From Escherichia coli O157:H7 (lineage in GTDB: Bacteria; Pseudomonadota; Gammaproteobacteria; Enterobacterales; Enterobacteriaceae), in the NCBI RefSeq assembly GCF_013167455.1, contig NZ_CP038328.1: DNA of 64,000 nucleotides. One strand, written 5' to 3'. Shown piece after piece: positions 20,201-29,200 of the stretch; the stretch's first letter is position 1, and every line of letters starts with the position of its first letter. Position numbers: made by a program.

Positions 20201-23200
20201 TCACGATTTTGTTAGCCGGATAACGCGTTCACCCGTATCCGGCATAAACAAGTGCACTTTGTCAGCAAACTGAAAAGGCGCCGAAGCGCCTTTTTAATCA
20301 GAACAATTCCTGTGCCTCGCCATTATCGATAATGGTCGTTCCCACCTCGTGCACCGCCTGTTGTGTCGGCTGCGTACCTTCGATGAAATACTCTTCGCGG
20401 CTGTTGCCACCATTAGCTAACTGCCCGGTGCTGCGATCGATATTCACCGTCACAATACCCGGCGGCGGCGTCAGCGGCTGCTCCGGCACACCTTCAAGAA
20501 CGGCTTTCATATAAGCGTCCCATGCAGGCTGGGCACTCTTGGCACCGCCTTCGTAACCTGAAATCTGATCTTTAATCGCTCCGGAAGCCGTTGTATGACC
20601 GAGATTACGACGGTGATCATCAAAGCCAATCCAGACCGAGGTCACAACGCCCGGTCCGTAACCCGAGAACCACGCATCTTTCGAACTGTTAGTGGTACCG
20701 GTTTTCCCGCCGATATCGCGACGCTGCAAATCACGACCTGCACGCCAGCCGGTACCCTGCCAGCCTGGCTCACCAAAGATATTGGTGTTCAAAGCACTCT
20801 TAATCAGGAATGCCAGCGGAGTGTTGATGACGTGCGGTGCGTACTCCTGCGCGCCAGTCTTCGCCACTAACGCCTGATTTGCCTGCTCCAGCTGCGGCAT
20901 TGGTACAGAAACATTCTGCTGCTCGCGGGAGATAGCGACATCTTCAACATCGTTATTTTCCAGCACGTTCGATTTCTGCGTATCACCGTAAATCACCGGA
21001 ATATCGCATTCCGGGCAGGCTACTTTCGGTTTCGCTTCGAAAATCACGCCGCCCTGATCGTTTTCAATTTTGCTGATAAACCACGGGTCCACCAGGAAGC
21101 CGCCGTTCGCCATGACCGCGTAGCCGCGCGCCACCTGCATTGGGGTGAAGGACGCTGAACCCAGCGCCAGCGATTCGGTGTGGACAATGTTTTGCGCCGG
21201 GAAGCCGAAGCGTTGCAGATATTCTGCAGCGTAGTCGACGCCCATCGCCCGCATTGCGCGTACCATCACCACGTTTTTCGACTGACCCAGCCCCTGACGT
21301 AAGCGAATTGGACCGGCATACTGCGGTGGTGAGTTTTTCGGCTGCCAGTCAGAACCGGCACCTGCGTCCCAGCGAGAAATTGGCACATCGTTCAACATAC
21401 TTGCCAGCGTCAGACCTTTATCCATCGCCGCGGTGTAGAGGAACGGTTTGATGTTGGAACCCACCTGACGCAGTGCCTGGGTGGCGCGGTTAAACTTGCT
21501 CTGATTGAAATCAAAGCCACCGACCAGCGCCATAACGGCACCATTTTGCGGATTGATCGACACCAGTGCCGAGTTCACTTCCGGCACTTGTGCCAGCCAC
21601 CATGCATCGCCAACCTGACGAACCCAGATTTGCTGACCCGTTTGCAGAACATCGGTCACTTTACGCGGCGTCGGTCCCTGCTGAGTATCCGAACGGTAAG
21701 GACGCGCCCAGCGAACGCCTTCCATACTCAATGCGACGGTCGACCCGTCCGCCAGCATTGCCGTCGCTTCCTGAGGATTGGCGCTGGTGACTGCGGCAGG
21801 CAGCAGCGGACCATAGGTCGGCAGCGCCTTCAGCGTATCGGTAATCTTGTTGTTATCCCACGCCGACTCGCCCACTTTCCACAGCACATTTGCCGGGCCG
21901 CGATAGCCGTGGCGCATGTCGTAGTCCAGCACGTTATTACGTACCGCCTGCTGCGCGGCCTGCTGCACTTTGCGGGTGATGGTGGTGTAAATGCGATAAC
22001 CGTCTTCATAGGCACTTTCGCCATAACGGTTATACATCTCCTGGCGCACCATTTCGCTCAGGTACGGCGCAGAAAAAGCAATCTCCGGCGCGTGATAGTT
22101 AGCGTTAATCGCCTCAGTGCGTGTCTGATCGAACTGTTGCTGGGTGATATATCCTTCATCCAGCATCCGCGATAGCACGACGTTACGCCGCGCGACGGCA
22201 CGATCCATCGAGTAGAGCGGGTTGAAGGTGGAAGGCGCTTTCGGCAGCCCGGCTATCACCGCCATTTCGTTCAGCGTCAGTTGGTCGACCGTTTTTCCGA
22301 AATAGACTTGTGCCGCAGCACCGACACCATAGGCGCGGTAACCAAGGTAAATCTTGTTCAGATAAAGCTCGAGGATCTCGTCTTTCGTCAGCAACTGTTC
22401 AATGCGAATCGCGAGGAAGACTTCCTTAATCTTACGCATCAGCGTGCGTTCTGGACTGAGGAAGAAGTTTCTCGCCAGCTGCTGGGTAATGGTACTTGCC
22501 CCTTGTGACGCGTGGCCGGAGAACAGCGCCACACTTGCCGCACGGAAGATCCCCACCGGGTCAACGCCGTGATGCTCGTAGAAGCGGCTGTCTTCCGTCG
22601 CGATAAAGGCTTTCACCATCTCCGGCGGGATTTGATCCAACGTAACCGGAATACGACGTTTCTCACCGTATTGAGCAATCAGCTCGCCATCGGCGCTGTA
22701 AATCTGCATCGGAATTTGCAGGCGAACATCTTTTAATGTCGCCACATCCGGCAGTTGTGGCTCGATGTAGCGGTATAGGCCATAAATCGAGCCTGCTCCC
22801 AGCAGAATGCAACAGACTGCAAGGATCAAAAAATACTTTACGAACTTCACTGGAAATTTCCCATTTAGTTTCATTTGGGCAGTTTATAAACAAACGCGCG
22901 GTAGTATAAAGGCAAGCCAGACGCATTGATATACCCGTCAGAGTGACGGGTGATAAGGAGATCATCACAATGGCATTTAAGATCTGGCAAATTGGTTTGC
23001 ATTTACAACAGCAAGAAGCGGTAGCGGTTGCTATTGTGCGGGGCGCAAAAGAATGCTTTTTGCAACGCTGGTGGCGGTTGCCGCTGGCGCACGACATTAT
23101 CAAAGATGGGCGGATTGTTGATGCGCAGCGGCTGGCTAAAACGTTGTTACCGTGGAGTCGCGAACTGCCGCAGCGCCATCACATCATGTTGGCGTTTCCC

Positions 23201-26200: not shown

Positions 26201-29200
26201 TGAACGACGCGAGTTAGTGGTGTTTATCACGCCACGACTGGTTTCCAGTGAGTAAACAGCCGTAAAAGCGGTAATGTTTTTACGCTGAACGTGTTTCATC
26301 TATTTGACGCGCGCAGGTATTTAGCATACAAGGAGTACCGATTTGAGAGTTGGTGCTCTTCGCTGCCTGCCTTCCATGATGATGATTTATCATTCAGGCG
26401 GCATTTTGCTGTCTTTTTTACGCTAATCTTACCCGGTGATTTATCGCCAGAGCGGTGGTAGCAAGGCAGCGCGCTTGCAGCGACCAGATATGCAGAGGGA
26501 TGGGTGATTTATTCAGTTGCCAAACCCGCTGGAGTATTGAGATAATTTTCAGTCTGACTCTCGCAATATCTTATGAGGTTTCAGTTCATGTCCTGCGGAG
26601 CTCTCTGAGCGAAGCGGGTTTATCATTAACGAATAGTCTTAGTAGTACCGAAAAAATGGCAGAGAAACGCAATATCTTTCTGGTTGGGCCTATGGGTGCC
26701 GGAAAAAGCACTATTGGGCGCCAGTTAGCTCAACAACTCAATATGGAATTTTACGATTCCGATCAAGAGATTGAGAAACGAACCGGAGCTGATGTGGGCT
26801 GGGTTTTCGATTTAGAAGGCGAAGAAGGCTTCCGCGATCGCGAAGAAAAGGTCATCAATGAGTTGACCGAGAAACAGGGTATTGTGCTGGCTACTGGCGG
26901 CGGCTCTGTGAAATCCCGTGAAACGCGTAACCGTCTTTCCGCTCGTGGCGTTGTCGTTTATCTTGAAACGACGATCGAAAAGCAACTTGCACGCACGCAG
27001 CGTGATAAAAAACGCCCGTTGCTGCACGTTGAAACACCGCCGCGTGAAGTTCTGGAAGCGTTGGCCAATGAACGCAATCCGCTGTATGAAGAGATTGCCG
27101 ACGTGACCATTCGTACTGATGATCAAAGCGCTAAAGTGGTTGCAAACCAGATTATTCACATGCTGGAAAGCAACTAATTCTGGCTTTATATACACTCGTC
27201 TGCGGGTACAGTAATTAAGGTGGATGTCGCGTTATGGAGAGGATTGTCGTTACTCTCGGGGAACGTAGTTACCCAATTACCATCGCATCTGGTTTGTTTA
27301 ATGAACCAGCTTCATTCTTACCGCTGAAATCGGGCGAGCAGGTCATGTTGGTCACCAACGAAACCCTGGCTCCTCTGTATCTCGATAAGGTCCGCGGCGT
27401 ACTTGAACAGGCGGGTGTTAACGTCGATAGCGTTATCCTTCCTGACGGCGAGCAGTATAAAAGCCTGGCTGTACTCGATACCGTCTTTACGGCGTTGTTA
27501 CAAAAGCCGCATGGTCGCGATACTACGCTGGTGGCGCTTGGCGGCGGCGTAGTGGGCGATCTGACCGGCTTCGCGGCGGCGAGTTATCAGCGCGGTGTTC
27601 GTTTCATTCAAGTCCCGACGACGTTACTGTCGCAGGTCGATTCCTCCGTTGGCGGCAAAACTGCGGTCAACCATCCCCTCGGTAAAAACATGATTGGCGC
27701 GTTCTACCAGCCTGCTTCAGTGGTGGTGGATCTCGACTGTCTGAAAACGCTTCCCCCGCGTGAGTTAGCGTCGGGGCTGGCAGAAGTCATCAAATACGGC
27801 ATTATTCTTGACGGTACGTTTTTTAACTGGCTGGAAGAGAATCTGGATGCGTTGTTGCGTCTGGACGGTCCGGCAATGGCGTACTGTATTCGCCGTTGTT
27901 GTGAACTGAAGGCAGAAGTTGTCGCCGCCGACGAGCGCGAAACCGGGTTACGTGCTTTACTGAATCTGGGACACACCTTTGGTCATGCCATTGAAGCTGA
28001 AATGGGGTATGGCAATTGGTTACATGGTGAAGCGGTCGCTGCGGGTATGGTGATGGCGGCGCGGACGTCGGAACGTCTCGGGCAGTTTAGTTCTGCCGAA
28101 ACGCAGCGTATTATAACTCTGCTCACGCGGGCTGGGTTACCGGTCAATGGGCCGCGCGAAATGTCCGCGCAGGCGTATTTACCGCATATGCTGCGTGACA
28201 AGAAAGTCCTTGCGGGAGAGATGCGCTTAATTCTTCCGTTGGCAATTGGTAAGAGTGAAGTTCGCAGCGGCGTTTCGCACGAGCTTGTTCTTAACGCCAT
28301 TGCCGATTGTCAATCAGCGTAACAACAAGAAAGGTCAGGCCGCTTATCAAGCGGTCTATTAGCTTCAGGTTAATTGCAACGTGGTAAGCATTAACCTTTT
28401 AGTGGGGTGTTAAATGGATGAATTCAAACCAGAAGACGAGCTGAAACCCGATCCCAGCGATCGTCGTACTGGTCGTTCTCGTCAATCTTCTGAACGTTCT
28501 GAGCGTACTGAACGTGGCGAACCGCAGATCAATTTTGATGATATTGAACTTGATGACACTGACGATCGCCGTCCGACTCGTGCGCAAAAAGAGCGCAATG
28601 AGGAACCGGAAATCGAAGAAGAAATTGACGAATCCGAAGATGAAACCGTGGATGAAGAGCGCGTAGAGCGTCGTCCGCGTAAGCGCAAAAAAGCAGCCAG
28701 TAAACCCGCTTCTCGTCAGTATATGATGATGGGCGTCGGCATTCTGGTTCTACTGCTGTTGATCATCGGTATCGGTTCTGCGCTAAAAGCCCCCTCGACC
28801 ACTTCCAGCGATCAAACCGCGTCTGGCGAGAAGAGTATTGATCTTGCTGGCAATGCGACCGATCAGGCGAATGGCGTGCAGCCAGCGCCGGGAACCACGT
28901 CTGCGGAAAATACTCAGCAGGATGTTTCTCTGCCACCGATCTCTTCTACGCCGACTCAAGGGCAAACCCCGGCGGCAACGGATGGTCAACAACGTGTTGA
29001 AGTGCAGGGTGACCTGAACAATGCGCTGACCCAGCCACAAAATCAGCAACAGTTGAACAATGTGGCGGTCAATTCTACATTGCCGACTGAACCAGCAACT
29101 GTCGCGCCAGTACGCAATGGCAATGCATCGCGTGACACGGCGAAAACGCAAACTGCTGAACGTCCGGCCACTACGCGTCCAGCTCGTCAGCAGGCGGTGA

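Follow-up and report, generated by a model that had tools for sequence, protein, structure and literature searches.

The region described here lies within a window of 64,000 nucleotides (nt) from Escherichia coli O157:H7 (RefSeq assembly GCF_013167455.1, contig NZ_CP038328.1), the window being the whole stretch of DNA that was analyzed. It is very probably the known hofMNOPQ operon (formerly yrfDCBA-hofQ), the enterobacterial counterpart of pilMNOPQ and comABCDE, in which hofM has been frameshifted by a 1-nt deletion and hofP runs on into the beginning of hofQ. The operon itself is already known and is not novel, as was rightly stated in an original prediction made from the sequence; the coordinates of the five genes and the overlaps of 17, 17, 11 and 89 nt given there match the open reading frame (ORF) listing exactly, and the assignment to this operon agrees with the RefSeq gene names as well as with family and fold matches. 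The statement that all five reading frames are intact had to be abandoned: hofN, hofO, hofP and hofQ are full length relative to the reference, but hofM is not, as it carries the 1-nt deletion and is flagged by the Prokaryotic Genome Annotation Pipeline (PGAP) as a 'frameshifted' pseudogene.

The hofM frameshift in O157:H7

In the window, hofM (22970-23764, plus strand; ORF listing and direct reading) comprises 264 codons and overlaps hofN by 17 nt. Alignment with E. coli K-12 revealed that the run of G residues at 23722-23724 (plus strand) reads GGG in place of GGGG, i.e. one G is missing, and that the frame is shifted from codon 253, where the last 7 residues of the K-12 protein (LALGKAY) are replaced by 12 others (WRLGRRTDEPAN). 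The product has 264 residues and ends with AIALGWRLGRRTDEPAN, compared with 259 residues ending with AIALGLALGKAY in K-12. The shifted frame terminates at a TAA codon (23762-23764), 16 nt later than normal. The K-12 hofM gene is 780 nt long and its TGA shares one base with the ATG of hofN (TGATG); the 17-nt hofM/hofN overlap of the window, where the normal junction is 1 nt, is thus a result of the deletion. In nearly all of the approximately 78 Enterobacteriaceae species compared, the two genes meet in a 1-nt (TGATG or TAATG) or 4-nt (ATGA) overlap or are separated by a gap of 1-2 nt. The frameshift is already on record in the RefSeq annotation, where PGAP lists hofM as a 779-nt pseudogene at 22970-23748, and a literature search found no description of a hofM/yrfD frameshift in O157.

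The distribution of the two alleles, referred to here as G3 and G4, was determined in 5,426 complete E. coli genomes with a 41-nt probe that seeds only on the G3 allele and with a G4 probe. The G3 probe matched 287 genomes, every serotype-labelled record among the matches listed being O157:H7, and the G4 probe matched 5,112; the number of genomes at least 99% identical over the region was 356, compared with the 287 matches of the G3 probe. Homopolymer runs are error-prone on some sequencing platforms, and the missing G could in principle be a sequencing or assembly error, but its recurrence in 287 independently assembled complete genomes of one clonal group, with G4 in 5,112 others, makes such an error an almost negligible explanation. 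A second line of evidence comes from the O157:H7 strain PV15-279 (locus L083), which has GGGG and an intact 780-nt hofM (positions 1766-2545 of that locus). This strain differs from the window at 5 sites in 4.9 kb and has the K-12 base at 2 of the other 4 (23951 and 24942). The combination of G4 with K-12-like bases at two of the four remaining sites indicates that G3 is the derived state. As far as these genome comparisons reach, the deletion arose within the O157:H7 lineage and the allele is lineage-specific.

At the protein level, HofM of O157:H7 keeps residues 1-252, has its last helix turn altered and gains a charged 12-residue end, and the stop codon of hofM moves from the TGATG junction to a position 17 nt inside hofN. 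The hofN gene (23748-24287, plus strand) is probably still translatable, because an overlap of 17 nt is the normal arrangement at its own junction with hofO (24271-24711, plus strand), where it is kept in most of the species compared. The C-terminus of HofM follows a common pattern in about 75 species: a motif A(L/I)(G/A)LA(L/M), then 3-5 residues that vary, and finally a stop codon directly adjoining the ATG of hofN. None of 42 Enterobacteriaceae orthologues (42-88% identity to the K-12 protein) departs from L253 and A254, two residues that lie in the terminal helix (residues 244-255) confidently predicted in the K-12 structure model; in the window they are replaced by Trp (L253W) and Arg (A254R). 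On the strength of this alignment, the balance tips slightly towards a HofM that is weakened or inactive in O157:H7. It is about an even question whether, in the main O157:H7 clone in particular, the frameshift has knocked out both the uptake of DNA that depends on Sxy and the catabolism of DNA.

Two points weigh against an impaired HofM, namely that the protein may still work, since only the last 7 of 259 residues are altered, and that the pseudogene label is an automatic annotation call. A functionally neutral frameshift, in which the 264-residue HofM folds and binds HofN and the operon remains functional in O157:H7, is consequently a serious alternative, held at somewhat below an even chance. 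It would be in line with the presence of only four substitutions relative to K-12 in residues 1-252, with the reading frame that remains open for a mere 16 nt more, with the variation between species of the residues past the conserved motif and with the fixation of G3 in hundreds of successful isolates. The replacement of the two invariant residues of the terminal helix speaks against neutrality, and clonal fixation is uninformative about function for an operon that is silent in most conditions.

The start of hofQ and its overlap with hofP

The overlap of hofP (24701-25105, plus strand) with hofQ (25017-26255, plus strand), which encodes a PilQ-type secretin of 412 amino acids (aa), occupies positions 25017-25105 of the same strand. 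These 89 nt, annotated in the same way in K-12 MG1655, contain the codons for HofQ residues 1-29 and the first two bases of codon 30, which cover the signal peptide and the beginning of mature HofQ; read in the other frame, they encode the tail of HofP. Large same-strand overlaps in bacterial annotation are often start-codon errors, and the original prediction had considered that the length of this one puts the exact start of hofQ in doubt. In-frame ATGs are indeed present at codons 11 (25047) and 27 (25095), the sole other Met codons near the start, and with either of them as the true initiation codon the long overlap would be an annotation artefact. However, neither leaves the hydrophobic signal region in place, so that a product starting at Met11 or Met27 would have no signal peptide, which a secretin needs, and neither Met is conserved across species.

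Several further lines of evidence point to the ATG at 25017. It is preceded, 6 nt upstream, by a Shine-Dalgarno sequence AAGGAG (25005-25010, plus strand), which lies inside hofP codons, is AAGGAG or AAGGAA in most species and is unpaired in the predicted RNA fold. According to hydropathy, translation from this codon yields a canonical Sec signal peptide, MKQWIAALLLMLIPGVQA, followed by AKPQ, and the HofQ hidden Markov model (HMM; NF007851) is matched from its position 1. For a comparison across the family, hofQ loci were taken from 80 species-representative genomes of Escherichia, Citrobacter, Salmonella, Enterobacter, Klebsiella, Kluyvera, Raoultella, Lelliottia and others. In nearly all of about 78 Enterobacteriaceae species the same start context was found, comprising a Shine-Dalgarno sequence, an ATG or GTG, a basic residue, a hydrophobic core and A-x-A, and the N-terminal pattern M-K-x-W-I is kept together with the Shine-Dalgarno sequence. 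The start at 25017, with hofQ initiating independently, can be regarded as secure on this conserved sequence context, and a start at one of the downstream Met codons as very improbable.

In RNA fold prediction, the hofQ initiation region showed no gain in stability over shuffled sequence (z = +0.45), and a coupling of hofQ to hofP by the unfolding of RNA structure was rejected on this result. An unstructured initiation region with its own Shine-Dalgarno sequence argues for independent initiation of hofQ rather than for termination-reinitiation. The tight translational coupling that had been proposed for the whole operon is plausible at the hofM/hofN, hofN/hofO and hofO/hofP junctions; termination-reinitiation is unlikely at hofP/hofQ, where hofQ has a strong and unstructured initiation region of its own.

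Across species the overlap has a modal length of 89 nt and a range of 4-140 nt (lengths are ORF-based where tblastn, with alignments running through stops, overstates them). Given the conserved start context of hofQ and this modal value, it is the 3' end of hofP that creates the overlap. Conservation of HofP extends to residue 103, at the end of CEPxxWxWxR(E/Q)G, and the AlphaFold2 (AF2) model of the protein is confident to approximately residue 105, residues 108-134 having a predicted local distance difference test score (pLDDT) below 50 (about 40). As hofP lacks a stop codon where the folded domain is complete, it reads on through the signal-peptide codons of hofQ, and the resulting 29-residue tail, predicted to be disordered, shows no separate sequence constraint. 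For a stop to arise in the hofP frame, a hofQ codon with a final T must be followed by one starting with AA, AG or GA, and the codons of the hydrophobic signal peptide of HofQ contain almost no such sites; the TGA that finally terminates hofP is formed by the GAT-GAC codons of a conserved V-D-D motif of HofQ. Because signal-peptide coding almost never offers stops in this frame, no selection in the second frame is needed for the overlap.

This was examined by a simulation in which the synonymous codons of hofQ were randomized at 77 loci, with the HofQ protein of each species held fixed. An open hofP frame of 80 nt or more was obtained in 92-94% of the E. coli trials and in 64% on average over the 77 loci, and the median simulated overlap was 89 nt in most species. 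The variability of the aligned sequences likewise follows the hofQ frame. In the mature part of the overlap, the mean entropy at codon positions 1, 2 and 3 of the hofQ frame is 0.71, 0.42 and 1.00, respectively, and over the whole overlap read in the hofP frame it is 1.12, 1.03 and 0.78, so that position 3 of the hofP frame is the least variable, compared with the hofP-only region (1.18, 1.08 and 1.41), where it is the most variable. Together, the simulation and the codon-position variability indicate that the overlap, although real and conserved, arises largely as a by-product of the sequence coding for HofQ.

The alternative is that the HofP tail is a selected, functional overprinted extension (e.g. 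contacting HofQ or DNA) that maintains the overlap of about 89 nt across the Enterobacteriaceae. In its favour, HofP has 131-138 aa in most genera, and its tail is consistently charged, Gly-rich and ends with GG. Furthermore, overlaps of at least 80 nt were observed at 86% of the 77 loci, somewhat above the 64% obtained in the simulation, although the species are not independent samples; this excess weighs against a pure by-product, and some weak selection keeping the tail is an outside chance. Several observations, however, oppose overprinting as the cause: an overlap of 89 nt is expected in most species from the HofQ protein sequence alone, codon-position variability in the hofP frame of the overlap reveals no constraint, the tail is predicted to be disordered, and its recurring residues are explained by conserved HofQ codons. 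In addition, some genera have a shortened tail or none at all (overlaps of 4, 38 or 62 nt). Five such loci, two of Leclercia-like metagenome-assembled genomes (L050 and L052) and three of Phytobacter/Kosakonia (L044, L046 and L047), are natural truncations of the HofP tail, with either an ATGA junction (4 nt, HofP of 103-105 aa) or an earlier stop (38 nt, as in L046 and L047 by the ORF-based measure), and the tail is lost or shortened in other lineages as well. A selected tail is therefore held to be improbable, and a by-product of HofQ coding remains the preferred reading of the overlap.

Relationship to type IV pilus proteins and genomic setting

The PilM, PilN, PilO, PilP and secretin character of the five products, which was part of the original prediction, is supported by Pfam and NCBIfam thresholds and by fold matches of HofM and HofP. 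HofN scores 38.1 bits with the Pfam PilN model (cut-off 22.8), HofO, a putative PilO-like protein, 85.7 bits with Pfam PF25319 HofO (cut-off 27) and HofP 264 bits, above threshold, with Pfam HofP. HofQ is covered over model positions 1-412 of 412 by NCBIfam NF007851 HofQ (855.9 bits, cut-off 598) and is matched by TIGR02515 PilQ (448.5 bits, cut-off 284.35) as well as by the Pfam Secretin, Secretin_N and STN domains; its best sequence matches in the PDB are cryo-EM structures of PilQ secretins. The N-terminus of HofN, MNPPINFLPWR, contains at residues 5-11 (INFLPWR) an (I/V)N(F/L)LPWR motif that is kept in orthologues.

HofM stays below the sequence-model thresholds (15 bits with TIGR01175 pilM against a cut-off of 133, T2SSL also being far under its own), and a profile search against the PDB reached PilM weakly (E = 0.006) and left the C-terminus uncovered; PilM proteins may have a comparable GLAL-type helix at their end. 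A structure model of the K-12 protein, built with AF2 from 42 orthologues (pLDDT 91), has as its best PDB folds PilM of Pseudomonas, Thermus and Myxococcus and the cytoplasmic domain of GspL. The matches to the PilM entries 5EOY, 5EOU, 2YCH and 3JC8 have E-values of 1e-14 to 1e-10 and TMq values of up to 0.73, and two of these entries, 5EOU and 2YCH, are PilM bound to an N-terminal PilN peptide. The model thus supports HofM as a PilM-like, cytoplasmic protein with a predicted actin-like fold. In the AF2 model of HofP, a signal or anchor helix (residues 2-17) and a beta domain (approximately 30-105) precede the disordered tail (108-134), and the top fold matches of the beta domain are PilP and the HR domain of GspC. 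The Cys of the HofP lipobox is not conserved among orthologues, and HofP is therefore not a conserved lipoprotein. By these likenesses, HofM, HofN, HofO and HofP would form the inner-membrane alignment subcomplex of a type IV pilus or DNA-uptake machine, and HofQ would be its outer-membrane secretin. Among the E. coli HofP homologues of the protein collection, many are truncated or fusion variants, with 78-117 aa or with 180-223 aa that include HofO or secretin domains; this points to frequent disruptions or miscalled genes in the operon across isolates.

The pilMNOPQ clusters of Pseudomonas, Neisseria, Myxococcus and Thermus have the same five-gene order as hofMNOPQ, and the likeness extends to the PilM fold of HofM, the PilN domain and INLLP-type N-terminal motif of HofN, the PilP beta domain of HofP and the PilQ secretin of HofQ. 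In contrast to PilM, HofM is about 95 residues shorter and nearer in size to the cytoplasmic domain of GspL; HofQ (412 aa), unlike PilQ, has no long N-terminal AMIN region and aligns only to the C-terminal approximately 410 residues of PilQ chains of 571-901 aa. The comABCDE operon of Haemophilus influenzae is related through yrfD, the orthologue of comA according to PMC1635313; both operons are induced by CRP with Sxy via CRP-S (Sxy-dependent) sites (PMC1635313). H. influenzae is naturally competent, whereas DNA uptake by E. coli was seen only with artificial sxy expression (PMC3330819).

The closest relative considered is the operon of E. coli K-12 (yrfD-yrfC-yrfB-yrfA-hofQ; b3395-b3391), which occupies the same mrcA-aroK locus in the same gene order. 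The two operons share the overlaps at hofN/hofO (17 nt), hofO/hofP (11 nt) and hofP/hofQ (89 nt), and their intergenic and CRP-S regions are identical; the 79 nucleotide differences counted between 21300 and 26200 all lie outside the hofP/hofQ overlap. The window departs from K-12 in hofM, with its 1-nt deletion, 264 instead of 259 codons, the 17-nt instead of 1-nt junction with hofN and the pseudogene flag.

Bases 1-50 kb of the window have no mismatch to O157:H7 PA20, and the names hofM, hofN, hofO, hofP and hofQ are those of the RefSeq annotation of the identical PA20 sequence. Many O157:H7 chromosomes match a 3.6-kb query (22800-26400) with 100% identity, and this query has a match in 5,425 of the 5,426 complete E. 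coli genomes, one genome giving no match; a second copy of the region was found in one E. coli genome, on a record classed as a plasmid. The five genes, in the order M-N-O-P-Q on one strand, are flanked by the divergent mrcA and by aroK-aroB-damX. The mrcA ORF (minus strand; 858 aa) opens at 22874, 8 codons upstream of its annotated start at 22850 (850 aa); the choice between them affects only the width of the mrcA-hofM intergenic region, which with the annotated start spans 22851-22969 and is identical to that of K-12. A weak terminator-like hairpin (26259-26272, plus strand; consensus match only) is located directly past the hofQ stop, and a terminator and promoter scan of 22600-26700 returned no more sites than shuffled sequence. 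An Rfam scan of 18000-30000 gave no matches. A second disrupted gene of the window is frlD (fructoselysine 6-kinase; 34048-34833, minus strand), which the annotation of the identical PA20 sequence lists as a pseudogene interrupted by an internal stop.

Control by CRP and Sxy and implications for O157:H7

The link of the operon to Sxy and CRP that was stated in the original prediction agrees with published work on K-12. The yrfD (hofM) promoter contains two predicted CRP-S sites, CRP weakly shifts a fragment of this promoter in a gel assay and yrfD is induced 16-fold by Sxy, dependent on CRP and cyclic AMP (cAMP) (PMC1635313); deletion of hofQ abolishes sxy-dependent transformation (PMC3330819). 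The expected location of the control site within 22851-22969 was not borne out, as no site within 3 mismatches of TGCGA-N6-TCGCA was found there. The published primers yrfDF and yrfDR (PMC1635313) match the window exactly at 22694-22713 and 22798-22819, which places the fragment shifted by CRP at 22694-22819, wholly inside the mrcA coding sequence and identical to K-12.

Near one end of this fragment lies a candidate distal CRP-S site, atcTGCATcggaatTTGCAggc (22702-22723, plus strand), with 3 mismatches to TGCGA-N6-TCGCA and with C6 and G17 kept. Its 3' end is 247 nt from the ATG of hofM, which fits the E. coli site at -246 given in the legend of Figure 4 of PMC1635313. Conservation of this -246/-247 site across genera was considered as support and discarded as uninformative, since the site lies in conserved mrcA coding sequence. 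With at most 2 mismatches, 29 matches to the consensus were found in the whole window, compared with 49 expected by chance, and none of these is upstream of hofM; at up to 3 mismatches, only weak candidates are present there. No sigma-70-like promoter was detected upstream of hofM on the plus strand (scan of 22600-26700), as expected for an activator-dependent promoter. Work by others on K-12 has shown that the operon is silent under ordinary culture conditions and is induced by CRP-cAMP acting with Sxy; the weak CRP-S sites are situated 150-250 bp upstream of hofM, inside the divergent mrcA. Three points weigh against this model: the assignment of the site at 22702-22723 relies on the published position and is a weak match, the second candidate, near the opposite end of the fragment (22783-22804), matches poorly, and all the expression evidence is from K-12 and not from O157:H7.

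The operon is reportedly involved in the use of DNA as a nutrient, a role ascribed to work by Finkel and Kolter in 2001 and by Palchevskiy and Finkel in 2006. The same window also carries gntX (178-861, minus strand; 'DNA utilization protein GntX'), annotated as intact in PA20, which we take to be a ComF homologue and another member of the Sxy/CRP-S regulon.

Searches for regulatory sites of hofMNOPQ must include the neighbouring mrcA gene, and not the intergenic gap alone. The hofP/hofQ junction provides a clean case in which two genes on the same strand share a long, conserved overlap and the annotation is nevertheless correct. Where O157:H7 is used for work on Sxy-dependent DNA uptake or on DNA as a nutrient, it should be borne in mind that its hofM differs from that of K-12 at two otherwise invariant residues, and, if HofM is indeed impaired, Sxy-dependent DNA uptake and growth on DNA would be reduced in typical O157:H7.

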